This document shows, in pieces, positions 5,528 to 64,000 of a stretch of DNA of 64,000 nt; position 1 is the first letter of the stretch; each line of letters opens with the position of its first letter. Source of the DNA: Felixounavirus LF82P5; sequence record OZ035800.1. One strand, 5' to 3'. The translations under genes were made by a program, and so were the position numbers. The notes beneath the pieces were generated by a model that searched no databases, was not told the origin of the DNA, and saw only the letters and a program-made list of their open reading frames with translations.

Positions 5528-5566
5528 CCTTATTAAAAGACCCTCTTTAAAGACCTTTTAAAAAGG
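5528..5566. repeat. repeated intergenic element, partial copy B
   Basis: 39-bp quasi-palindromic core identical to the start of copy A. Confidence 0.55.
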
Positions 5567-5585
5567 AGCCTCCGAAGAGGCTACC
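5555..5585 (-). terminator. rho-independent terminator (minus strand)
   Basis: On the minus strand AGCCTC-UUCG-GAGGCT hairpin followed by a U5 run, immediately downstream of the 5594..6034 stop. Confidence 0.55.
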
Positions 5586-5593
5586 TAGTCAAC

Positions 5594-6034
5594 TTAGAAA
5601 GGTTTTCTACGTTGCTTGTTAATGTTAGCTTTCATAGCAGCTAAATGGTTTTGCTGTTCAATTAGTCGTGAACGTTCTTGATGGCTAAGTACCATAGTGT
5701 TCACATTCTCAATCGCTTGAGTGGCTTGCTTTAAAGCACGACCAATCTTACCAGACATTTTACGTTTTGCAATAGTTGCTTGATGCTTAGGTTCAACCAC
5801 ACGATAACCAACACCCATTGAAGCAACCAGATAAATCTTCTCTTCTTTAAGAAGCTTCTCAATAAACTTCTCAAGTCGATTTAAGCGTGTAAGCGCATAA
5901 GCCTTCATTTCATCTTCGTACTTAACAATGTCACCTTGATAAGTTGGCTTCACAATACCTAAGAAGGTGTCCATCTCAGAATGTGATACAGTGTCACCGT
6001 AACTAAACTTTGCTGCTAATGCTTTTGTATTCAT
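5594..6034 (-). CDS. hypothetical protein
   Basis: 146-aa ORF with ATG start; flanked by repeat elements. Confidence 0.5.
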   Translation of the reverse strand: MNTKALAAKFSYGDTVSHSEMDTFLGIVKPTYQGDIVKYEDEMKAYALTRLNRLEKFIEKLLKEEKIYLVASMGVGYRVVEPKHQATIAKRKMSGKIGRALKQATQAIENVNTMVLSHQERSRLIEQQNHLAAMKANINKQRRKPF

Positions 6035-6036
6035 AA

Positions 6037-6642
<606 letters not shown>

Positions 6643-6866: not shown

Positions 6867-6994
6867 ATTACCGCACCATATTATACCCTACCCCACCATA
6901 CTTCACTGCACCGAGCCACGCATTACATCACTTAAAAACCCTTTTCAAAGACTCTTAAGTGATGCTGGTGAGTACCCGTTGGTTTATGATGCTC

Positions 6995-7022
6995 AGTATA
7001 CTCACCAAATTTCCTATGTCAA
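6995..7022 (-). promoter_or_regulatory. sigma70-like promoter (minus strand)
   Basis: Minus-strand TTGACA-16 nt-TATACT upstream of the 6037..6624 gene. Confidence 0.4.
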
Positions 7023-7178
7023 CAACTTTTATAAAAAAGTTCTGATAGCTATATGCGTCACGAAACAAAAGATTGTAAACAAGACACCCATTGCAAAAGA
7101 TGTGTCCAAAAGCTTACTTGCAACGTATGACAATACAAAGACAACCAGTATAAATAGAATGACTGTACTGAACATAGT

Positions 7179-8282
7179 TTACTCATAATCCCTAATAACT
7201 AGCCCTACAGGAAACTGTAAAGAACCTTTACGAGTCATCTTCTGGAACTGAACAGTTAAAGGTTTCCCGATAAACTCTTCAGGATGTTCAGCAAGATACT
7301 GTTTCTTCTCGTGTGTAGTTTTCCATGAAACATCTACAAAGACGTTAGGAAGAGTCTCTACAACGAACTTACCATGACCACGCTTATCGGTCTTTACACC
7401 AGTCACTTTAAACTCTTCAGTGTGCATCTTCTTGTGCTTAATCAAGAAGTATGAACGGTGACAACACTCATAGAAGGAGTCTTCAGAGATTGAACGGTAC
7501 ATTGCACCTTCAAACTTAGCTTCAACCCACTTATCATGAGCTTCATCAAACTCTTCCCAAGAATTTACACGACGAGATTTAACAGGAACAACTTTACAGC
7601 CGTCTCTAAAGTCATTCAATGGTGAAGTCTCAATAATATCTCTACGCTCAGGCCACGTTTTAGTACTGTCACAGATATCATACCAGTAGAACTTAAGTAA
7701 GTGTCTGTCAGGATTGTCTTCATTTTTAATCATAGAGACAATATCTTCTAAGTCCCACCCATGAGCATAAATCTCACCATCAAATTCATCAACATCTTTA
7801 TGGAGCCTCAACATTGCCATAATGTCAGGTATTAGCTCAGTAGGAATTTTATAAATAGTGTTCTCACGAGAATATGCTGTAAATACACTGCCAATGCTTA
7901 AGTGTCTTGAAATTCTACAACGTACACCATCAAGCTTCGGTTGGGCATCAGCAGGGAATTTCAAATACTTTGCATGGCTAACCTTTGCAGTATCATGAGC
8001 AAGCTGTACACCTACCTTCTCAGTATTCTGTGCAGACTCTTTTGTGTAAGCATAACCTTTGCGGTCAACTTGCTTTTTATACTTAGCAGCAACTTCAAAG
8101 AGGGCTTGCTGTTCAGCATTACGCTCATTCTTTTTACCGATGTTTTTAGGTTCTGCTGTATACTCTTCAAACATCATCTTGCCATTTTCTTTACCGTAGG
8201 TTGTAATAACTTTGTCACCTACAGCAACACATGACCAGACGTTAAAAGAGCCGTCTTTATTTTGTTTGTACAGAATTGTCAT
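7179..8282 (-). CDS. ATP-dependent DNA ligase
   Basis: 367 aa; adenylation motif I KLDGVRC; size like T7-type ligases. Confidence 0.75.
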   Translation of the reverse strand: MTILYKQNKDGSFNVWSCVAVGDKVITTYGKENGKMMFEEYTAEPKNIGKKNERNAEQQALFEVAAKYKKQVDRKGYAYTKESAQNTEKVGVQLAHDTAKVSHAKYLKFPADAQPKLDGVRCRISRHLSIGSVFTAYSRENTIYKIPTELIPDIMAMLRLHKDVDEFDGEIYAHGWDLEDIVSMIKNEDNPDRHLLKFYWYDICDSTKTWPERRDIIETSPLNDFRDGCKVVPVKSRRVNSWEEFDEAHDKWVEAKFEGAMYRSISEDSFYECCHRSYFLIKHKKMHTEEFKVTGVKTDKRGHGKFVVETLPNVFVDVSWKTTHEKKQYLAEHPEEFIGKPLTVQFQKMTRKGSLQFPVGLVIRDYE

Positions 8283-56652: not shown

Positions 56653-58068
56653 ATGAGCGAGTTATTTAAACATGCGCACCTTCATGCAGGTCGAACTGAA
56701 AATGGTGCTGTAAACCATACTTCATCAATGTCTGCTCTGGTAGACTTCTACAAAGCCGCTGGCTCAAGCCGTAGCAATGTAGAAATCTTACCAGACCTGT
56801 TCTACAAAGCTTTGCGTGAGGATGTTGATGTTGCAGTTCGTATTTTACTGCATATGCGAGATGTACGAGAAGGTATGGGTGAGCGTAAAGCTTTCCGAAC
56901 TGTTTTACTTCAAGCGATTGAAGATAAAGTTTTAGAGCCTACACAGGTTCTTCGCATTATGGACAAGATTGCAGAACTTGGTCGTTTTGATGACTTCAAA
57001 ATCTTCGTAGGTACTCGTTTCGAGACAGATGCCTTCAAACATTTAGAAGCAGCATTACTAGACCCTGCAACAGCAGGTTTAGCAGCTAAGTGGTTGCCAC
57101 GAGTAAAACCACGCCACAAACAGTTTGTAAAACGTTTCTGTAAGTTTGCAAACTTAAGTGAGAAGGAGTATCGCACACTGTTATCTGCACTGTCTGATAC
57201 GGTTGAGCAAAAAATCTCTGCGAATGAGTTTGGTAAGATTGACTACAGCAAGATTCCTTCACTCGCTGCTGCACGTTACCAAAAACTCTTTAACCGTAAA
57301 GATGGGGAACGTTACAAAGCTTACATCGAGTCACTCTCAAAAGGTGAGTCTAAGATTAACGCTGGTGCTGTTTACCCATACGATGTGATTAAATCTATTA
57401 AGTATGGTAATGCAGATGTTGCTAATGAGCAGTGGAAAGCACTTCCAAACTGGATGGCAGAAGGTGAAAACATCTTGTGTATGACTGATGTTTCAAGCTC
57501 AATGTCTTGGGTGAATCTTGGCTCAATTACTGCCCTTGATATTGGTGTATCACTTGCCTTATATGTAGCAGAACGCAATACAGGTTGCTTTAAAGATGAG
57601 TTAATGGTCTATTCAACAAACCCTCATTTCATTGAACTGAGTGGTGATTTACGAAACCGTCATCGTCAGGTAATGCGTCATGTTGAATATGGTTCAACTA
57701 ACTTACAAGCAGCTTTTGACCGTATTCTTGAGATAGGTAAGAGAAACAACTTGACTCAGAAAGATATGCCAAGTAAGCTTATCATCTTCTCCGATATGGA
57801 GTTCAATCAGGTTGATGGAGCTAACGGTCGTACAAACTTTGAAGCAATTCAGAGTAAGTACAAAAAAGCTGGATATGAGATGCCACAACTAGTATTCTGG
57901 TACTTAGCAAACCGTAATGGTACTTGCGAAGTGTCTGTTAAGGATAATGGTGTAGCAATGGTATCAGGGTTCTCTCCAGCCACTTTAAAAGCTCTGCTTG
58001 GTGGTGAGAAGTTTGACCCAATCAGCGTAATGCTCAAAGCAGTAATGATTGACCGTTACATCTGGTAA
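56653..58068 (+). CDS. vWA-domain protein with N-terminal helical domain (possibly Ro60/TROVE-like)
   Basis: 471 aa; MIDAS-type DxSxS (MTDVSSSMS) with downstream Thr and LIIFSDMEF; helical N-terminal half; directly upstream of the tRNA array. Confidence 0.45.
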   Translation: MSELFKHAHLHAGRTENGAVNHTSSMSALVDFYKAAGSSRSNVEILPDLFYKALREDVDVAVRILLHMRDVREGMGERKAFRTVLLQAIEDKVLEPTQVLRIMDKIAELGRFDDFKIFVGTRFETDAFKHLEAALLDPATAGLAAKWLPRVKPRHKQFVKRFCKFANLSEKEYRTLLSALSDTVEQKISANEFGKIDYSKIPSLAAARYQKLFNRKDGERYKAYIESLSKGESKINAGAVYPYDVIKSIKYGNADVANEQWKALPNWMAEGENILCMTDVSSSMSWVNLGSITALDIGVSLALYVAERNTGCFKDELMVYSTNPHFIELSGDLRNRHRQVMRHVEYGSTNLQAAFDRILEIGKRNNLTQKDMPSKLIIFSDMEFNQVDGANGRTNFEAIQSKYKKAGYEMPQLVFWYLANRNGTCEVSVKDNGVAMVSGFSPATLKALLGGEKFDPISVMLKAVMIDRYIW

Positions 58069-58086
58069 AAAGTTTTAAAAAGGGTA

Positions 58087-58115
58087 TTGACAATGTGTTT
58101 GATACCCTTTAATAT
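58087..58115 (+). promoter_or_regulatory. sigma70-like promoter for the tRNA array
   Basis: TTGACA-17 nt-TAATAT; the -35 is embedded in the inverted repeat AGGGTAT...ATACCCT. Confidence 0.55.
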
Positions 58116-58233
58116 GTTCTACATAGAAACGAAATGAGAGCTTTTCTAAGATACTGAAAAATATTTTAAAAAAGTTCTTGACAACCACTAAAAAATAATG
58201 TTAAAGTGGTTACATAGAGTTTGAAAAGTTTAT

Positions 58234-58310
58234 CTCTGTTTAGCTCAGCTTGGTAGAGCGTTCCGTTTGGGGCGGTAAGGCCGGAGGTTCAAGTCCTCCA
58301 ACAGAGACCA
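58234..58310 (+). tRNA. tRNA-Pro (anticodon TGG)
   Basis: Hand-folded cloverleaf: acceptor CTCTGTT/AACAGAG, D-stem GCTC/GAGC, anticodon loop TTTGGGG, T-arm GGAGG-TTCAAGT-CCTCC, encoded CCA. Confidence 0.6.
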
Positions 58311-58317
58311 AATTAAT

Positions 58318-58395
58318 GTTCCAGTAGACAAAATGGTAAAGTCACCACTCTTTCAAAGTGGATATTTGAGGGTTCAAATCCCTTCTGGAACGCCA
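58318..58395 (+). tRNA. tRNA-Glu (anticodon TTC)
   Basis: Acceptor GTTCCAG/CTGGAAC, anticodon stem CCACT/AGTGG, loop CTTTCAA, T-loop TTCAAAT, CCA. Confidence 0.65.
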
Positions 58396-58402
58396 GTTTT
58401 GA

Positions 58403-58475
58403 CAGAAGACCAATTGCAGCAAACTTAATCTTATTCATCTGACACGAAATCGGACAAAGAAGAGATTTGGTCTGG
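58403..58475 (+). ncRNA. stem-closed structured element E1 (candidate small RNA)
   Basis: 5' CAGAAGACCAATTGCAGCAA ... 3' TTTGGTCTGG; 7-bp closing stem AGACCAA/TTGGTCT. Confidence 0.35.
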
Positions 58476-58486
58476 TCATTAAGAAT

Positions 58487-58563
58487 TGCGGGTATAGAGA
58501 AAGGGCGTCTCACATGTCTCATTAGCATGGTATCGGCAGGTTCGACTCCTGCACCCGCCTCCA
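58487..58563 (+). tRNA. tRNA-Met (anticodon CAT)
   Basis: Anticodon stem CATGT/GCATG, loop CTCATTA, T-arm GCAGG-TTCGACT-CCTGC; U1-C72 mismatch in the acceptor stem. Confidence 0.55.
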
Positions 58564-58569
58564 ATTTTG

Positions 58570-58629
58570 CAGAAGACCGTATTCAGCAACAAAATACTTT
58601 TTGCGGATAAAAGAAAAAACACGGTCTGG
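58570..58629 (+). ncRNA. stem-closed structured element E2
   Basis: 5' CAGAAGACCGTATTCAGCAA ... 3' CACGGTCTGG; closing stem AGACCG/CGGTCT. Confidence 0.35.
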
Positions 58630-58640
58630 CAATGTATTAA

Positions 58641-58717
58641 GGTTAGGAAGCACATAAGGTATGTGCGGTCGCCTGTTAAGCGAATGGCACAGGGTTCGAA
58701 TCCCTGACTAACCGCCA
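58641..58717 (+). tRNA. tRNA-Asn (anticodon GTT)
   Basis: Acceptor GGTTAGG/ACTAACC, D-stem GCAC/GTGC, loop CTGTTAA, T-arm CAGGG-TTCGAAT-CCCTG, CCA. Confidence 0.6.
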
Positions 58718-58726
58718 AATTTAAAT

Positions 58727-58814
58727 GTGTCGTTATCCCGTAGATGGTAGCGGTGGGGACTGTAAATCCCTTGTCATTGAGACTCGGTAGGTTCGACTCC
58801 TACACGGCACACCA
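58727..58814 (+). tRNA. tRNA-Tyr (anticodon GTA), long variable arm
   Basis: Anticodon stem GGGGA/TCCCT, loop CTGTAAA, 14-nt variable arm, T-arm GTAGG-TTCGACT-CCTAC, CCA. Confidence 0.6.
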
Positions 58815-58820
58815 AATAAA

Positions 58821-58898
58821 GGTTATGTAGTTTAATCTGGTTAAAATACTCCCCTGTCACGGGAGATGATGAGGGTTCAAATCCCTTCGTAACCGCCA
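58821..58898 (+). tRNA. tRNA-Asp (anticodon GTC)
   Basis: Anticodon stem CTCCC/GGGAG, loop CTGTCAC, T-arm GAGGG-TTCAAAT-CCCTT, CCA. Confidence 0.65.
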
Positions 58899-58985
58899 AA
58901 TTATAATAAGTATTTCAAGATGATGTTTTGAGATGGCTATTTAGCCCCTCCCTTAAAGAGTTCTTACGAGTATTCTTTAAAGGAG

Positions 58986-59062
58986 CAGAAGACCAAATTC
59001 AGCAAGTACGTATGATATTTTCAAGCCAATTTAATTTTGAAAAAATTTAAAACTTGGTCTGG
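58986..59062 (+). ncRNA. stem-closed structured element E3
   Basis: 5' CAGAAGACCAAATTCAGCAA ... 3' ACTTGGTCTGG; 7-bp closing stem. Confidence 0.35.
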
Positions 59063-59075
59063 CTCAACAAATTTA

Positions 59076-59207
59076 CAGAAGACCGTTTACAGCAAAACTT
59101 AAACAATCTATTTCTCCGGTAAAGAAAAGGCGAAGGTTCGATTCCTTCACTCGGCAGATGTCGAGTTGGTGTAATGGTAGCACTTAAGATGATAAACAAC
59201 GGTCTGG
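59076..59207 (+). ncRNA. stem-closed element E4 with embedded permuted tRNA-like module (candidate Y-RNA-like RNA)
   Basis: 8-bp closing stem AGACCGTT/AACGGTCT; inner helix CTTAA/TTAAG; T-arm GAAGG-TTCGATT-CCTTC; acceptor-like helix ACTCGGC-AGAT-GTCGAGT capped by a 4-nt loop; D-arm GTGT-AATGGTA-GCAC. Confidence 0.4.
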
Positions 59208-59356
59208 TAATTATCTTTGTAGATAAGTTATTAAGCTTACCTGTGAGTATGCGACCACAAAGGGTGAAAGGGTAAATTCTAGATTTAAACCCAACAAGGC
59301 ACATCGCTACAGACCTTAAGCAAGTCTGGGTAGCTTATCTACAAAGATAATTTAAT

Positions 59357-59432
59357 GGAAGTGTAGCAGAATGGTGATGCGGCAGACTTTTAATCTGACA
59401 GGCGATGGGTTCGAATCCCTCCACTTCTACCA
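59357..59432 (+). tRNA. tRNA-Lys (anticodon TTT)
   Basis: Acceptor GGAAGTG/CACTTCT, anticodon stem CAGA/TCTG, loop CTTTTAA, weak T-stem, CCA. Confidence 0.5.
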
Positions 59433-59436
59433 ATAT

Positions 59437-59513
59437 GGTTCAGTCGCAGATAAGGTAATGCAGGGGTCTCATAAGCCCTATGAATGTGGGTTCGATTCCC
59501 ATCTGAACCTCCA
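59437..59513 (+). tRNA. tRNA-Met or tRNA-Ile2 (anticodon CAT)
   Basis: Acceptor GGTTCAG/CTGAACC, loop CTCATAA, T-arm GTGGG-TTCGATT-CCCAT, CCA. Confidence 0.55.
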
Positions 59514-59514
59514 A

Positions 59515-59590
59515 GCTGGTATAGTTAAGAAGGTTATAACACTCCCCTGATAAGGGAACATCGGTGGTTCGATTCCACCTACCAGTACCA
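59515..59590 (+). tRNA. tRNA-Ile (anticodon GAT)
   Basis: D-stem GTTA/TAAC, loop CTGATAA, T-arm GGTGG-TTCGATT-CCACC, CCA. Confidence 0.6.
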
Positions 59591-59605
59591 ATTTCAATAA
59601 AGTTG

Positions 59606-59634
59606 TTGACATTGAGATGTGACCACTTTATAGT
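59606..59634 (+). promoter_or_regulatory. internal sigma70-like promoter within the tRNA array
   Basis: TTGACA-17 nt-TATAGT. Confidence 0.5.
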
Positions 59635-59837
59635 AACCTTAGTTTTCGTTGCGTAGCGTCTATTTTGCAAATTTAAAATAAATGCAAACGACAATGTTTT
59701 TCTGGCAGTAGCTTGATAGGCTAAACACCAGTGAGGTCTTCCAATCCCTCATCAAAGAATTTGGCGTACTCGCCCACGGTATGATTAATAAGGTGGGCAT
59801 CTTTAAGGGCTTTCTAAGAGAGTCTTTAAAGATTAAT

Positions 59838-59914
59838 GCACCCTTAGTTCAATTGGATAGAGCAACGGTCTTCTAAATCGTTAGTTACAGGTTCGAATCC
59901 TGTAGGGTGTGCCA
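59838..59914 (+). tRNA. tRNA-Arg (anticodon TCT)
   Basis: Acceptor GCACCCT/AGGGTGT, D-stem GTTC/GAGC, loop CTTCTAA, T-arm ACAGG-TTCGAAT-CCTGT, CCA. Confidence 0.65.
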
Positions 59915-60062
59915 AATAGTTAGCAGATTGCTTAGACGACCTTATCGGGTCTCCGTGTAAGGAGGTGGTCTGTATCTCATGTTTTCCAGAACATGTAAAT
60001 AATCTGAGAAGGGGCTTTACAGTGTTGCGAAAATACGGTAAGCTTCGAATTATAGTTTTAAT

Positions 60063-60133
60063 AGGGGTGAGCTATGGCAGCAATAGAGTCTCCAAAATTC
60101 TTGATTAGAGTTCGAATCTCTACACCCCTGCCA
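60063..60133 (+). tRNA. tRNA-like sequence with degenerate anticodon arm (possible pseudogene)
   Basis: Good acceptor AGGGGTG/CACCCCT, D-stem CTAT/ATAG and T-arm TAGAG-TTCGAAT-CTCTA, but no pairable anticodon stem and only about 68 nt. Confidence 0.3.
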
Positions 60134-60147
60134 GAACAGGTGCTTGT

Positions 60148-60552
60148 ATGAAACTTTGTAGAAAATGTTCTCAAGAAAAGCCTTTAAGCTGCTTTCATAA
60201 AAGAGGTAATGGCTATCAGTCTGCTTGCAAAGATTGTAAAGCTAAGTACTCAGCAAAGAGATACAAAGAAGACCCTACTTATAAAGCAAAAAGAAAAGTT
60301 AGGGCGAAATATGACAAAAAGAGGAACAGAGAGTTCCTTAGTAGATATAAAAAGTTTTGCAAATGCAGAATATGTGGCGAATCTGAGCCAGTAGCTTTGG
60401 ATTTTCATCACTTAGACCCTAAAGAGAAAGATTTTGCTCCAAGCAATCTTAAGACTTACTCTAGAGGCACTATTAAGCGTGAAGTCCGTAAGTGTGTTGT
60501 GCTTTGTTCAAACTGTCATAGGAAAGTTCATGCAGGACTGTTAAGTATTTAA
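60148..60552 (+). CDS. HNH endonuclease embedded in the tRNA array
   Basis: 134 aa; Cys-rich zinc-binding N-terminus and HNH core DFHHLDPKEKDF...CSNCHRKVH. Confidence 0.7.
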   Translation: MKLCRKCSQEKPLSCFHKRGNGYQSACKDCKAKYSAKRYKEDPTYKAKRKVRAKYDKKRNREFLSRYKKFCKCRICGESEPVALDFHHLDPKEKDFAPSNLKTYSRGTIKREVRKCVVLCSNCHRKVHAGLLSI

Positions 60553-60565
60553 CAGTCTTATTAGG

Positions 60566-60655
60566 GGTAGGTAGCGGCTAATGGCAGCCAAACAGTCTTG
60601 AAAACTGTTGCCACTGTAGAGATACGGTGAGGGTTCGACTCCTTTACTTACCGCC
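60566..60655 (+). tRNA. tRNA-Ser (anticodon TGA), long variable arm
   Basis: Anticodon stem ACAGT/ACTGT, loop CTTGAAA, roughly 20-nt variable arm, T-arm GAGGG-TTCGACT-CCTTT. Confidence 0.6.
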
Positions 60656-60811
60656 TAATAAGATTTAAAGCCAAGCTTCATTCGGATGTTGCTTTGGTAT
60701 CCCTCGTGTATTGTCGTACACGCACAGTAAAGCACCTAGTAGGTGTCACGGAGAAGAGATAATATCAAGCTCTCCAAAGGTTCTAGTCACCGGATTAAAC
60801 AAGACTATGCA

Positions 60812-60832
60812 AAGACCAAATTAGGTCTTTTT
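60812..60832 (+). terminator. hairpin plus T run inside the tRNA array
   Basis: AGACC-AAATTA-GGTCT followed by TTTTT. Confidence 0.4.
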
Positions 60833-60911
60833 AGAGGGCTTCTAAGGTTATTACAGCTTGTTGTGGAACCTTGTTGCTTAGGTTCTTAGAAGTTCTCTAA
60901 AAAGATTTAAT

Positions 60912-60988
60912 GCACCTATAGCCCAATTGGTAGAGGCAGCAGACTTAGAATCTGCTCAGTGTGAGTTCGAATCTCTCTAGGTGTACCA
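60912..60988 (+). tRNA. tRNA with Leu-type anticodon TAG, short variable arm
   Basis: Acceptor GCACCTA/TAGGTGT, Leu-like D-arm GCC-CAATTGGTAGA-GGC, 6-bp anticodon stem AGCAGA/TCTGCT, loop CTTAGAA, 5-nt variable region. Confidence 0.45.
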
Positions 60989-60995
60989 AATTAAT

Positions 60996-61071
60996 GCAGG
61001 TGTAGCAAAATGGTTATGCGGCTGACTCTTAATCAGTAAGACGATGGGTTCAATTCCCTCCACCTGTACCA
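60996..61071 (+). tRNA. tRNA-Lys (anticodon CTT)
   Basis: Acceptor GCAGGTG/CACCTGT, loop CTCTTAA, same weak T-arm as the other Lys tRNA, CCA. Confidence 0.5.
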
Positions 61072-61077
61072 AACATT

Positions 61078-61153
61078 GGGGTCATAGTTTATATGGTTAA
61101 AATTCGAGTTTTGCAAACTTGGGAACTGAGTTCAATTCTCAGTGACTCCACCA
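61078..61153 (+). tRNA. tRNA-Ala (anticodon TGC)
   Basis: Anticodon stem CGAGT/ACTTG, loop TTTGCAA, T-arm CTGAG-TTCAATT-CTCAG, CCA. Confidence 0.55.
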
Positions 61154-61159
61154 ATTAGT

Positions 61160-61234
61160 GCATCCATAGTTTAAACGGGAAAATTACAGTCTTCCAAACT
61201 GAGGTTGAGGGTTCGATTCCCTCTGGATGCTCCA
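61160..61234 (+). tRNA. tRNA-Gly (anticodon TCC)
   Basis: Acceptor GCATCCA/TGGATGC, loop CTTCCAA, T-arm GAGGG-TTCGATT-CCCTC, CCA. Confidence 0.6.
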
Positions 61235-61241
61235 AATTAAT

Positions 61242-61317
61242 GCTCCTATCGTATAATTGGCTATTACGGTTGCCTTGTAAGCAACTTATCAGGGTTCGAA
61301 TCCTTGTGGGAGCACCA
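61242..61317 (+). tRNA. tRNA-Thr (anticodon TGT)
   Basis: Anticodon stem GTTGC/GCAAC, loop CTTGTAA, T-arm CAGGG-TTCGAAT-CCTTG, CCA. Confidence 0.65.
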
Positions 61318-61321
61318 ATTC

Positions 61322-61408
61322 AGAGGTCAAGTGAAAGACCGCTTTGAGTCAACTGAAGACCGTAACAAATCCCACGGAGTTGAGTTAGCGGCACAACTTC
61401 AGACCTCT
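61322..61408 (+). ncRNA. stem-closed structured element E5
   Basis: Perfect 7-bp closing stem AGAGGTC/GACCTCT enclosing about 73 nt with two AGACCG motifs and internal hairpins; no T-loop. Confidence 0.3.
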
Positions 61409-61413
61409 TTCAT

Positions 61414-61488
61414 ACTCGCTTAGTTTATATGGTAAAACATCACCCTTACAAGATGAAGAAAAAGGTTCAAGTCCTTTAGTGAGTACCA
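61414..61488 (+). tRNA. tRNA-Val (anticodon TAC)
   Basis: D-stem GTTT/AAAC, loop CTTACAA, T-arm AAAGG-TTCAAGT-CCTTT, CCA. Confidence 0.55.
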
Positions 61489-61489
61489 T

Positions 61490-61567
61490 GTTCCAGTATC
61501 CCAATTGGCAGAGGATGCAAGCTCAAACCTTGTACTAGTGACGGTTCGAATCCGTCTTGGAACACCA
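61490..61567 (+). tRNA. tRNA with Leu-type anticodon CAA, short variable arm
   Basis: Leu-like D-arm TCC-CAATTGGCAGA-GGA, anticodon stem GCAAG/CTTGT, loop CTCAAAC, T-arm GACGG-TTCGAAT-CCGTC, CCA. Confidence 0.45.
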
Positions 61568-61572
61568 ATTTT

Positions 61573-61648
61573 GCAGGATTAGTTCAAATGGATAGAGCAA
61601 CAGTCTACGAAGCTGTTAATAGGGGTTCGAATCCCTTATCCTGCGCCA
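61573..61648 (+). tRNA. tRNA-Arg (anticodon ACG)
   Basis: Acceptor GCAGGAT/ATCCTGC, loop CTACGAA, T-arm AGGGG-TTCGAAT-CCCTT, CCA. Confidence 0.6.
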
Positions 61649-61667
61649 ATTTAAAGAGGCTATTTAG

Positions 61668-62225
61668 ATGAGATATTTGAAGTATGCTTCATGGATTTTC
61701 TTAGCTTTGTTAGAGCCATTTGCAGCAATCTTAGCAGTTATCTTAGCACCTTTCGTAGTTCCATTCTACAGTGAGAAGAAAGGACATCTCCCTTTTGGAT
61801 TCAGATGGATGGAGACATATGACAACCAAATTGATGGTGATAAAGGTCATGTCGAACGATGGGCTAAGATTAGAAAGATTGGTAAGCTTGGTGTCTATAT
61901 GCAGAGAGTTGGTTGGCTCTGGAGAAACAAAGCTTATAACTTCTCTTACCATGTGTTAGGAAGAGATGTAAAAGATGTTACTAAGTGGAAAGGCAATATC
62001 AATGTAAGTTCTAACCCTGAAGATAATCAGACAGGTTATCTCCTAATGTGGAACAGTAATGCTTGGGGATTATTCGCTTTTGTACCATCAATTAAAATCT
62101 TTGGTAAACAATTCTACTGGAGAATTTATGTTGGGTGGAAACTTAAAAGTGTTGTCCCAGAAGAAAGGGCATTCTCAAGGGAAAGAGTTATGTTGGCATT
62201 CTTTATTCATCCACTAAGAAAATAA
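61668..62225 (+). CDS. membrane protein of unknown function embedded in the tRNA array
   Basis: 185 aa with AGAGG Shine-Dalgarno; hydrophobic N-terminus (WIFLALLEPFAAILAVILAPFVVPF). Confidence 0.5.
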   Translation: MRYLKYASWIFLALLEPFAAILAVILAPFVVPFYSEKKGHLPFGFRWMETYDNQIDGDKGHVERWAKIRKIGKLGVYMQRVGWLWRNKAYNFSYHVLGRDVKDVTKWKGNINVSSNPEDNQTGYLLMWNSNAWGLFAFVPSIKIFGKQFYWRIYVGWKLKSVVPEERAFSRERVMLAFFIHPLRK

Positions 62226-62233
62226 AGATTTAA

Positions 62234-62309
62234 AGGGGATTAGTTTACAAGGTTAAAACCTCGGTCTTTGAAATCGAAGAAGTTGGTTCAATTCCAACAT
62301 CCCCCGCCA
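62234..62309 (+). tRNA. tRNA-Gln (anticodon TTG)
   Basis: D-stem GTTT/AAAC, anticodon stem TCGGT/ATCGA, loop CTTTGAA, T-arm GTTGG-TTCAATT-CCAAC, CCA. Confidence 0.55.
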
Positions 62310-62311
62310 AT

Positions 62312-62390
62312 GCTCCATTACTCCAATTGGCAGAGAGGCCAGACTTAAAATCTGTGTTATGTATCGGTTCGAATCCGATATGGAGTACCA
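62312..62390 (+). tRNA. tRNA with Leu-type anticodon TAA, short variable arm
   Basis: Leu-like D-arm CTC-CAATTGGCAGA-GAG, anticodon stem CAGA/TCTG, loop CTTAAAA, T-arm ATCGG-TTCGAAT-CCGAT, CCA. Confidence 0.45.
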
Positions 62391-62395
62391 AATTT

Positions 62396-62471
62396 AGCGG
62401 TATAGCATAACTGGCAATGCAACAGTCTCTGAAGCTGTCTTATTAAGGTTCAAATCCTTATGCCGCTGCCA
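62396..62471 (+). tRNA. tRNA-Gln (anticodon CTG)
   Basis: D-stem GCAT/ATGC, anticodon stem ACAGT/GCTGT, loop CTCTGAA, T-arm TAAGG-TTCAAAT-CCTTA, CCA. Confidence 0.55.
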
Positions 62472-62502
62472 CTTCTAAGGGTTCTTACGAGAGTCCTTAA
62501 AT

Positions 62503-62578
62503 GTGGCCTTATCATAAATGGTAATGACCCATGCTGTGAACATGGTCTATACGGGTTCAAATCCCGTAGGTCACCCCA
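62503..62578 (+). tRNA. tRNA-His (anticodon GTG)
   Basis: Anticodon stem CCATG/CATGG, loop CTGTGAA, T-arm ACGGG-TTCAAAT-CCCGT, CCA. Confidence 0.6.
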
Positions 62579-62583
62579 ATTTA

Positions 62584-62658
62584 TAGTCCAAGTAGCTTAT
62601 ATGGTTAAAGCGCGTGTCTGAAAAACATGAGAAGAGGGTTCAAATCCCACTGGACTAC
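62584..62658 (+). tRNA. tRNA-Phe (anticodon GAA)
   Basis: Perfect acceptor TAGTCCA/TGGACTA, loop CTGAAAA, T-loop TTCAAAT; D-arm register uncertain. Confidence 0.45.
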
Positions 62659-62676
62659 CAATTTCAAAGGTGCTTA

Positions 62677-63411
62677 ATGAAAGAGATGACAGAACAAGGT
62701 AAGGAGATTTTTAATCTCTTAAAAACCGGTAGAGGGTTTTCTAATCCCCTTATTACTGGTGCAGCAGTTCTCGGTGGAACCGTAGCTGCCTCTACATCAC
62801 TTGTAAGCTCTATTAGCTCTGTATCAGACCCTACAGTAAAGGATAAGCTTGTTGCTGCTGGACTTACAACAGTTCTGCTTAACAGCTTTACCACGAGTCT
62901 GACAAGCACTACATCAACTACCAAAACACTAACAGATTACGGTCAAAAGTCCATTGATGAGTTTTCATCACGTATGCAGGTAGCAAAAGGTTACTCTAAT
63001 GTTATGGGTGCAGCAGGTGAACAAGTTGGCTGTACACCATTTAGTGGTATTATGGGTGTTGCTACAGAGTATGGTCAAAAAGCTATTGACACGATTAACA
63101 GTACACTAGATAGTGTTAACGATGTGTTAAGTGACTTACAAGATGCTATTGATAAGGGTCTTGATACTGTTTCTGATTTAGCTAACCAAGCTGTTAGTAA
63201 GATTAATGAAGGTATCTCAAAGATTACAGCTTATGCAGATGAAGTTGTGCAGATGATTGAAGAAGAAGCTGCCCTTATTGCAGAGTACCTTAAAACGAAT
63301 ATCAATGGGTTCTTAGCAGGTATCTTACCAGACTGGTTTGATGATGCCTGTAAAACTGGTGTAATTGACACTATTGCAACACCAGAAATGAAGAGCGCAT
63401 TACAGAAATAA
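62677..63411 (+). CDS. Ser/Thr-rich protein of unknown function
   Basis: Track ORF begins with GTG inside tRNA-Phe; start moved to ATG 62677 with AAAGG Shine-Dalgarno. Confidence 0.45.
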   Translation: MKEMTEQGKEIFNLLKTGRGFSNPLITGAAVLGGTVAASTSLVSSISSVSDPTVKDKLVAAGLTTVLLNSFTTSLTSTTSTTKTLTDYGQKSIDEFSSRMQVAKGYSNVMGAAGEQVGCTPFSGIMGVATEYGQKAIDTINSTLDSVNDVLSDLQDAIDKGLDTVSDLANQAVSKINEGISKITAYADEVVQMIEEEAALIAEYLKTNINGFLAGILPDWFDDACKTGVIDTIATPEMKSALQK

Positions 63412-63412
63412 T

Positions 63413-63505
63413 GGAAGATTAACCCTAAAAGGTAAGGGAGCAGTTTGCTAAACTGCCAGTAGCTGAGAAATCGGTGTACCAGTTCAAGTCTGGTATCTTC
63501 CTCCA
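63413..63505 (+). tRNA. tRNA-Ser (anticodon GCT), long variable arm
   Basis: Perfect acceptor GGAAGAT/ATCTTCC, anticodon stem GCAGT/ACTGC, loop TTGCTAA, 20-nt variable arm, T-arm ACCAG-TTCAAGT-CTGGT, CCA. Confidence 0.65.
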
Positions 63506-63509
63506 ATTT

Positions 63510-63585
63510 GAATCCGTGACAGAAATGGATATGTACCTGTCTGCAAAACAGGTTTATAAGGGTTCGAGTCCCTTCGGATTCTCCA
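63510..63585 (+). tRNA. tRNA-Cys (anticodon GCA)
   Basis: Perfect acceptor GAATCCG/CGGATTC, anticodon stem CCTGT/ACAGG, loop CTGCAAA, T-arm AAGGG-TTCGAGT-CCCTT, CCA. Confidence 0.65.
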
Positions 63586-63621
63586 AGTTATTTTACTCTC
63601 TCTCAATTAAAATAATAATAA

Positions 63622-63681
63622 TGCCCTGCTATAAGTATTCTTCCTTTCGCTACCGAAGAGTATTTTTAGACAGGGCTTTTT
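63622..63681 (+). terminator. large hairpin terminator closing the tRNA array
   Basis: GCCCTG...CAGGGC stem enclosing an imperfect inner hairpin, followed by TTTTTT. Confidence 0.5.
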
Positions 63682-63807
63682 TACAGAGTTATACTTTATA
63701 GGAAGACTTATACAGTATGTCTCTGACGTACATTGTGGTTTCTCCTTGACGGTCTCTGTGCCGTCTTTTTTAAGGGGAAACATGGTTAATTATTTGGAGA
63801 AAACATA

Positions 63808-64000
63808 ATGAGCGAGACCGTTTACAAAGAACTTTATGAAGCTAATAAAAAGCTAGAATTTATGCAGAACACTATCATGGCAATTGCAGATAGATTATCT
63901 GTAGCAACAGGTATTGATATTAAAGAAGCATCTATGGATGCACTTCTTGATGCTGTTGATGAAAAGTTCGAAGTTAAGAAAGAAGAGACTGCTACAGACT
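63808..64000 (+). CDS. hypothetical protein (3' end outside the window)
   Basis: ATG with GGAGA Shine-Dalgarno; frame open to the window end (MSETVYKELYEANKK...). Confidence 0.4.
   Translation, partial: MSETVYKELYEANKKLEFMQNTIMAIADRLSVATGIDIKEASMDALLDAVDEKFEVKKEETATD

Follow-up and report, generated by a model that had tools for sequence, protein, structure and literature searches.

The DNA analysed here is a 64,000-nt stretch of Felixounavirus LF82P5 (sequence record OZ035800.1; this whole stretch is called "the window" below), and 413 phage records match the region. The final 6 kb of the window form a plus-strand array with 27 tRNA genes. Here or immediately upstream lie a gene for a Ro60-like protein, four short elements resembling Y RNAs, which we term E1–E4, and, between E4 and the gene for tRNA-Lys(UUU), a segment bounded by inverted repeats (59208–59356; Table 1). 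A first-pass annotation, made from the letters alone, had drawn attention to this segment and suggested that it could be a miniature inverted-repeat element or a long-stemmed RNA. On comparative sequence evidence, the inverted repeats close a conserved structured non-coding RNA of ~145 nt, which we consider very likely to be a functional structured element encoded on the plus strand. The searched literature contains no description of the segment RNA or of the E elements, and nothing relevant was found in it on DUF2828 or on Felixounavirus transcriptomics and non-coding RNAs. The segment RNA thus appears to be undescribed so far.

Table 1. Positions of the segment, its helices and the neighbouring features in the window
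Feature	Position	Strand	Basis
Gene for the Ro60-like protein, 471 aa, DUF2828 and DUF7788/vWA	56653–58068	+	Pfam, fold
Two sigma-70-like promoter sites upstream of tRNA-Pro, starting at 58087 and 58178	58087–58207	+	consensus matches only
E1, Y-RNA-like element	58403–58475	+	
E2, Y-RNA-like element	58570–58629	+	
E3, Y-RNA-like element	58986–59062	+	
E4, Y-RNA-like element with permuted tRNA-like module; stops 1 nt before P1	59076–59207	+	
P1, 5' strand of the 24-bp closing helix with G.U pairs; includes AATTATCTTTGTAGATAAG	59209–59232	+	repeat finder, fold, covariation
P2, hairpin with loop motif GAGUAUGCG at 59245–59253	59237–59267	+	minimum-free-energy folds
P3, hairpin with tip AUUCUAGAUU	59270–59292	+	invariant alignment columns, fold
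P4, hairpin CAGAC/GUCUG with 9-nt loop CUUAAGCAA at 59315–59323	59310–59328	+	stem covaries, loop constant
P1, 3' strand of the closing helix	59329–59352	+	repeat finder, fold, covariation
4-nt spacer UAAU, from P1 to the first base of tRNA-Lys(UUU)	59353–59356	+	
tRNA-Lys(UUU), directly 3' of the segment	59357–59432	+	adjacency kept in L043, L044 and L045

The inverted repeats are real: the 19-mer AATTATCTTTGTAGATAAG occupies 59209–59227 and its exact reverse complement 59334–59352. The first-pass annotation had the first arm right and placed the second (at 59330–59348) 4 nt off. With three mismatches allowed, these two are the only matches of the 19-mer in the 64 kb (expected number 0.04). 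A repeat finder extended the arms to 22 nt (59209–59230 and 59331–59352, 95% complementary and 100 nt apart), and we estimate a chance expectation of ~4e-5 for a 22-nt inverted repeat with at most one mismatch, within 150 nt, in 64 kb. Folded as plus-strand RNA, the segment reaches -50.2 kcal/mol (z = -5.06), and none of 200 shuffled sequences folds as well. The arms are then joined in the closing helix P1 (AAUUAUCUUUGUAGAUAAGUUAUU and GGUAGCUUAUCUACAAAGAUAAUU), which is perfect and has no bulge.

Relatives were obtained from three sources: IMG/VR, reached via the upstream protein; GenBank phages of the genera Felixounavirus, Mooglevirus and Suspvirus; and contigs with more distant homologues of the upstream protein. 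Twenty-two distinct relatives make up our alignment, from which a covariance model was derived. Across them 98.5% of the P1 cells are paired, versus 29–44% when the 3' partners are slid by 1–3 columns. Double-sided changes affect four pairs of P1: UA>CG (in 7 sequences), UA>CG (10), GC>CG (10) and UG>GC (10). At columns 16/138 one A-U pair has been deleted on both sides together, and the variants confined to single sequences are mostly transitions that yield G.U. Columns 21/133, 24/130 and 25/129 hold G.U in all or many sequences, which would be A.C on the opposite strand, so that the pairing is valid only in the plus-strand RNA. The covariance model likewise gives 165.5 bits for the plus strand versus 48.8 bits for the minus strand. 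This pattern of substitutions indicates that P1, together with the interior hairpin P4 described below, is under selection for pairing, as plus-strand RNA.

Three more distant lineages, L043, L044 and L045 (Yersinia phage P778), whose upstream Ro60-like proteins are 63, 56 and 53% identical, extend the comparison. The homologue in L043 (6278–6421) is found by the covariance model with 76 bits, and those in L044 and L045 were located first by reading and folding; with its filters off, the model then hits the same coordinates weakly (15.4 and 13.7 bits). All three segments are ~150 nt long, end 0–10 nt before tRNA-Lys(UUU) and are closed by a helix of 22–30 bp (duplex energies -27.6 to -35.3 kcal/mol) that has no sequence relationship with P1 of the window. 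Alignment and folding show one architecture, at one site directly 5' of tRNA-Lys(UUU), in Felixounavirus, Mooglevirus and Suspvirus as well as in these three distant lineages. Of the two proposals in the first-pass annotation, the long-stemmed RNA is therefore borne out by covariation, by G.U pairs valid on the plus strand only, and by helices of unrelated sequence in distant phages.

Two natural deletions concern the segment. In L011 (~6456–6546) recombination between the T arm of E4 and that of tRNA-Lys has removed the segment together with the 3' part of E4 and the 5' part of tRNA-Lys. In phage ESCO56 (L042, 1180–1400) tRNA-Asp, E3, most of E4 and tRNA-Lys/Met/Ile are deleted, and the segment is intact. 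Together, these genomes indicate that the segment is retained independently of either neighbour, and that it is dispensable in at least one genome. As a separate observation, open reading frames (ORFs) for HNH homing endonucleases are present in the tRNA array of the window (60148–60552, plus strand) and of the relatives L036 (484–972) and L040 (542–970); their differing sites point to frequent insertion and loss in the region.

The first-pass annotation had also noted a TTATC/GATAA hairpin within each arm and had considered that the repeats might arise from these two local hairpins with no long-range pairing. Both hairpins exist, though they are weak (-3.4 and -3.0 kcal/mol, versus -29 for the arm–arm duplex), and the full-length fold reaches -48.3 kcal/mol with P1 versus -25.5 with the local hairpins. 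They fit the close relatives too (96.5% of cells paired), because each arm is internally palindromic. However, the local hairpin is gone from the 5' arm in the CRP22-like and Mooglevirus/Suspvirus clades and from both arms in L043, and the 3' arm of L045 has merely a trivial 3-bp local stem (-0.8 kcal/mol). Moreover, the covarying columns 13/141, 20/134 and 25/129 fall in the loops of the local hairpins or outside them. Two independent local hairpins, energetically trivial and missing in other lineages, can account neither for the covariation at these columns nor for the paired deletion, and we rejected them as an explanation of the repeats.

Inside P1, folding reveals in all lineages a multi-branch core with three hairpins, P2–P4. 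The loop motif of P2 recurs as AGUAUGCG (identical) in L043, as GAGUAGGC in L044 and as GUAUGC in L045, on a stem that varies by lineage (GUG/CAC, GGGG/CCCC, CUAU/AUAG). The tip of P3, AUUCUAGAUU, is invariant in Felixounavirus, Mooglevirus and Suspvirus and reads ACUAGU in L043, which retains the CUAG absent from L044 and L045; the outer stem of P3 changes from GGG/CCC to AGC/GCU between clades. P4 stacks immediately on the 3' strand of P1. The first-pass annotation had recognized this hairpin but gave it the form CAGACC-N9-GGTCTGG, whereas the DNA reads CAGAC-CTTAAGCAA-GTCTG, i.e. 5 bp and a 9-nt loop; apart from this and the position of the second arm, what it described is right. Its stem takes the forms CAGAC/GUCUG, CAGACC/GGUCUG and CAAACC/GGUUUG among the variants (with GC>AU in 7 sequences), CAGUC/GACUG in L043, CUGUUC/GAACGG in L044 and AAAGUC/GACUUU in L045. 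The loop conforms to C-Y-U-W-AGCAA in every one of six lineages, while the stem changes four times, and a scan of all fetched loci revealed P4-type hairpins only in these homologues of the segment. That the loops of the interior stay constant on changing stems is an argument for a function of the enclosed RNA itself.

Several familiar identities were considered for the segment or its parts. Rfam searches over 57000–64000 at E <= 1 returned zero matches in the segment. Neither ARAGORN nor the Rfam tRNA model finds a tRNA in 59208–59356, which lacks the T and D arms of a cloverleaf. A terminator was rejected, as no U-tract follows the stem and none was called. A hammerhead-like core (CUGUGAG..GAAA) is not conserved and has no Rfam hit. 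We also compared P4 with the anticodon stem-loop of the neighbouring tRNA-Lys(UUU) (59383–59399; CAGA/UCUG, CUU..AA). The likeness is restricted to the clade of the window and the CRP22-like clade, and it is probably a coincidence, because it is lost in the other clades.

The other proposal of the first-pass annotation, a mobile insertion in the manner of a miniature inverted-repeat element with terminal inverted repeats, has in its favour a ~150-bp segment between inverted repeats of 19–22 bp, in a tRNA region that HNH homing endonuclease genes enter and leave in relatives. Yet there is one copy in the window and no flanking direct repeat was found; the site is the same in all genera; the arms show compensatory changes and G.U pairs, and those of L043–L045 differ in sequence and still pair. 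The only empty site among the relatives is the T-arm-to-T-arm deletion in L011. A search for the 19-mer elsewhere, as the first-pass annotation had proposed, yielded in 185,579 bacterial genomes only unpaired single matches of the kind expected by chance. A single copy at a fixed syntenic position, with no target-site duplication and no spread in bacteria, is not what such an element would leave, and we regard this identity as hardly credible. A signal at the DNA level, either a cruciform or a symmetric site for a dimeric protein, such as an origin or a homing-endonuclease site, is very improbable: a near-perfect 22-bp repeat could extrude a cruciform as well, but the transitions in the arms that give G.U on the plus strand would leave A.C mismatches in a cruciform or on the opposite strand, the covariance model separates the strands (165 versus 49 bits), and the arm sequence is not conserved in L043–L045, where a protein site should persist. 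As regards coding capacity, an 85-aa ORF does exist on the minus strand (59047–59304), and it is annotated in phages AYO145A, UAB_Phi87 and wV8 as a hypothetical protein ("similar to wV8_gp048"). However, it runs antisense over E4 and half of the segment, is frameshifted in the close relatives L004, L015 and L019, contains many stops in the Mooglevirus and Suspvirus clades and has no Pfam match. The ORF is probably a spurious annotation passed between records; that it encodes a protein is next to impossible, and the segment does not code for protein.

The neighbourhood of the segment offers a more specific interpretation. The 471-aa protein, whose gene ends 1.14 kb before the segment and lies on the same strand, models as having the Ro60 fold: its AlphaFold2 model has a predicted local distance difference test score (pLDDT) of 89, and the top 11 PDB hits of the fold search are all Ro60, Rsr or phiLo Ro60 (E 2e-8 to 1e-6), among them Xenopus Ro60, Deinococcus radiodurans Rsr and the Ro60 of Thermus phage phiLo. 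The likeness comes from the fold search only, since a search of PDB with the protein sequence gave no hit, and there is no TROVE match by sequence. This is a very divergent Ro60, from a DUF2828 family for which the protein database has no fewer than 2,249 homologues, most of them on phage-like contigs. A preprint describes the homologue gp130 of phage Bas63 as Ro60-like and as counteracting the ppl defence system; its authors also speculate that some of the nearby "tRNAs" could be Y RNAs.

The four elements downstream of the gene are unannotated and have no Rfam match. E1–E4 share a plan in which a variable 4-bp outer helix is followed by an asymmetric bulge (5' AGA / 3' G), an AGACCnnn/nnnGGUCU helix and then CAGCAA; the conserved bulged helix reads CAGA-AGACC / GGUCU-G-G. 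The module of E4 comprises a T arm (59132–59148), a closed acceptor stem (59149–59155 / 59160–59166) and a D arm (59169–59183), and its order V-T-acceptor-D is that of the YrlA architecture (Chen et al. 2014, PMC4201824). E1 and E2 are joined to their downstream tRNAs by plain 12-nt spacers. An imperfect 17-bp hairpin (CTCCCTTAAAGAGTTCT-tacg-AGTATTCTTTAAAGGAG, 58948–58985), kept in L011 and L043, abuts E3. All five plus-strand AGCAA sites in the non-coding region 58069–59356 fall within E1–E4 or in the loop of P4. Elements with a stem and CAGCAA also adjoin the homologous genes in distant phages, including L031, L032 and L046–L048, where L046 is Vibrio phage phi-pp2 and the protein of L047 is 48% identical. 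In 75 further loci (L075–L149), whose proteins are 39–47% identical, CAGCAA is strand-specifically enriched within 1 kb of the gene: the gene strand has 131 copies and the opposite strand 41, at least one is present in 64 of the loci, and the bases upstream of the motif are conserved (G at -9, U at -6, UA at -2/-1). In L046 (~2968–2980) and L048 (~2961–2970) the gene's own 5' leader contains the motif, a hint of autoregulation of the Ro60-like gene.

P4 resembles these elements in part. It would belong to the same transcription unit, and it shares with them an AGAC(C)/(G)GUCU stem followed 3–4 nt later by AGCAA. In the CRP22-like clade, where P4 reads GACCCUUUAGCAA-GGUCUG versus GACCGUUUACAGCAA...GGUCUGG in E4, it looks like a collapsed E element. 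The modules are placed differently: in E1–E4 the module is the closing helix, with the conserved AGA/G bulge, whereas in the segment it is a bulge-free side hairpin within a different and much longer closing helix, and the C of CAGCAA is missing. Since P4 shares the stem-plus-AGCAA module with E1–E4 and with the RNAs found alongside this protein family elsewhere, the segment RNA may be a fifth partner, of an atypical kind, for the Ro60-like protein, an idea that proceeds by analogy.

Our best overall explanation, to which we would give a probability of about one half, is that the segment is released as an excised plus-strand RNA with a 3' end made by RNase P, and that this RNA is a candidate partner of the Ro60-like protein. 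Transcription would start at the promoter-like sites at ~58.1 kb (the next such site on the plus strand is at 59606) and would yield one precursor with the tRNAs and E1–E4. The cut by RNase P at the 5' end of tRNA-Lys would leave an RNA that ends 0–4 nt past P1, that is, a near-blunt hairpin that should resist exonucleases. Its 5' end may be generated as the abutting E4 matures, or else by an endonuclease, for which RNase III cutting in P1 is a possibility. In the most speculative step, the AGCAA module of P4 would be recognized by the Ro60-like protein, with P1 as a rigid stalk. A further extension, which we put forward only tentatively, is that the segment is a dedicated part of an unrecognized phage ribonucleoprotein whose DUF2828 Ro60 reads a code of helix plus (C)AGCAA, rather than the classical Y motif, here presented as a side hairpin on a 24-bp stalk.

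A number of observations weigh against an excised RNA that serves the Ro60-like protein. GNCGAA, the classical Ro60-binding motif, was not found in 59208–59356, and P1 lacks the bulged AGACC/GGUCU helix of E1–E4. The loops of P4 (CUUAAGCAA, CUUUAGCAA or CCUUAGCAA) have an invariant AGCAA at a spacing of 3–4 nt and without the preceding C, so that P4 carries AAGCAA or UAGCAA, with tighter spacing, instead of CAGCAA; one element of L031 likewise has UAGCAA. The AGAC-type stem of P4 is lost in the Mooglevirus/Suspvirus clade and in L043, L044 and L045, and with these differences the link to the protein comes down to a 5-nt motif. P4-type hairpins are absent from the 75 more distant loci that bear the protein. 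The loss in L011 means that the segment is dispensable at least under some conditions. Finally, the hairpins that precede other tRNA genes in these phages suggest that P1 may be a generic feature of tRNA leaders.

These leader hairpins are as follows. At 59799–59833 a 16-bp hairpin (AUCUUUAAGGGCUUUC-UAA-GAGAGUCUUUAAAGAU) stands 4 nt before tRNA-Arg(UCU), with the junction AAAGAUUAAU followed by G, as in the segment. A second long hairpin (60812–60911; 27-nt arms at 60820–60846 and 60885–60911) directly precedes tRNA-Leu(UAG), with a mini hairpin (AAGACC-AAAUUA-GGUCUU) ahead of it. The arms of the long hairpin show covariation between clades, its loop has a conserved UUGUUGCU, the complement of AGCAACAA, and its version in L043 shares the 10-mer CUUUGUAGAU with P1 of the window. 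In L047 a simpler 16-bp hairpin precedes tRNA-Lys(UUU) and another long hairpin precedes tRNA-Glu. Pairing of the P4 loop CUUAAGCAA over 9 bases with UUGCUUAGG (60874–60882) was considered and rejected, as it holds only in the window's own clade of close Felix O1-type relatives and is uncompensated elsewhere; the part general across clades is a 5-bp AGCAA/UUGCU core. P1 may belong to a family of tRNA-leader hairpins for the processing or stabilization of the precursor, with the segment as its most elaborate member. Also in this part of the array, the region between tRNA-Ile and tRNA-Arg (59532–59837) has weak hits to the Rfam tmRNA and permuted tmRNA models, below the gathering scores, and includes a degenerate T-arm-like piece, GAGGUCUUCCAAUCCCUC, at ~59732–59749; ARAGORN calls no tmRNA there. 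The same tmRNA-like hits occur in L044 (~5560–5775), L045 (~6980–7200) and L047 (~5655–5880), and the block shared by the distant phages (..GAGAGCTTTAGTGG..T arm..CACTAAAGG..AAAATAACACGAGGCGAC..GCGCCTACTCTTAA) looks tRNA-like or tmRNA-like.

The main rival explanation, which we find less likely, is that the segment is a purely cis-acting element of processing or stability, with P1 as a leader hairpin set between the Y-like RNAs and the block of tRNA-Lys/Met/Ile. P1 could then be an RNase III stalk, as around 16S and 23S rRNA, or a block to exonucleases, and the excised interior would have no function of its own. The length of the helix, ~22–30 bp, is constant in six lineages while the sequence changes, so that the ~20 bp of near-uninterrupted double-stranded RNA expected of an RNase III stalk are present in all six. 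Substrates of RNase III belong to a size class of about two helical turns, and RNase III is reported to act on the precursor of the T4 tRNA cluster. Three hairpins of the window have the outer stem UCUUU.../...AAAGAU in common, together with the junction UU(U)AAU followed by G right before the tRNA, and the hairpins of L047 similarly stand before tRNA-Lys and tRNA-Glu. Against a purely cis-acting role stands the constrained interior, in which the loop of P4 is constant over six lineages on a stem that changed four times, and the GAGUAUGC-type loop of P2 recurs in each lineage, in variant form in several. ESCO56 speaks against it too, as the segment survives there although E4 and tRNA-Lys are largely deleted. 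In addition, the plain spacers after E1 and E2 imply that no hairpin is needed for the transition from such an RNA to a tRNA.

Felix O1-type phages are classic typing and therapy phages of Salmonella and E. coli. The long spacers in their tRNA region have been annotated as empty or as spurious ORFs, and one of them, by the comparisons above, is a conserved structured RNA. The cluster as a whole looks like a complete phage Ro60/Y-RNA system, comprising a protein of Ro60 fold, four Y-like RNAs, of which one mimics tRNA and three are simpler, and a long-stem RNA. The coordinates, motifs (the bulged AGACC/GGUCU helix, CAGCAA and the P4 loop) and structures reported here make the Y-RNA idea of the Bas63 preprint directly testable, and our results suggest that a large phage branch of the Ro60 family recognizes RNA through a code of a different kind. 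If this is true, the side hairpin P4 may tether or gate the protein in a way unlike E1–E4 and so aid the anti-ppl activity reported for Bas63 gp130, and the code would be used by a DUF2828 family with >2,000 homologues in many phage types.

Among known systems, the stalks cleaved by RNase III in the rRNA operon and at the early-mRNA sites of phage T7 are formed by flanks that pair over at least 20 bp, and a double-strand cut could release the interior. The segment is like them in that the length of its helix is conserved and the sequence is not. Unlike them, it encloses only ~96 nt and abuts a tRNA, so that RNase P alone would free its 3' end. A further parallel is provided by the stable RNAs species 1 and 2 of phage T4 (rnaC and rnaD), small RNAs without an assigned function that lie in the T4 tRNA cluster and come from the same precursor as the tRNAs; to our knowledge, T4 has no Ro60-like gene beside rnaC and rnaD.

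Comparison with Y RNAs gives a mixed picture. We tested the segment for the bulged GGUCCGA of animals, the GNCGAAN0-1G of YrlA and YrlB and the CGAA of phiLo Yrl, and it failed: P1 has no bulge, there is no Ro60-binding motif and no Rfam family. For this reason we leave it outside the Y RNAs and regard it as a variant within the Ro60-associated or tRNA-cluster non-coding RNAs. Set against the Y RNAs that are not tRNA-like, namely YrlB of S. Typhimurium and M. smegmatis, Yrn2 of D. radiodurans and Yrl1 and Yrl2 of phiLo, the segment differs in lacking the GNCGAA/CGAA or GGUCCGA motif and a bulge in the stem, in its length (~145 nt versus the usual 80–130 nt), in its multi-branch junction core in place of a small pyrimidine-rich loop, and in its candidate partner, a very divergent Ro60 (DUF2828). 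It resembles them in lying ~1 kb from a gene for a Ro60-fold protein, on the same strand; in the pairing of its 5' and 3' ends into a long stem, here the 24-bp P1, around an internal module; and, if our reconstruction of the transcript is right, in being co-processed with its neighbours from one precursor. It also sits beside a Y-like RNA with a tRNA-like module (E4), after the pattern "tRNA-like plus long-hairpin" of bacteria, which carry Y RNAs of both kinds (PMC4201824). The Ro60 of phiLo binds two phage-encoded Y-like RNAs and the host PNPase (PMC12135203). By analogy with the several Y RNAs per bacterial genome and the two Yrl RNAs of phiLo, the Ro60-like protein of Felixounavirus could have the segment RNA as a further partner next to E1–E4.

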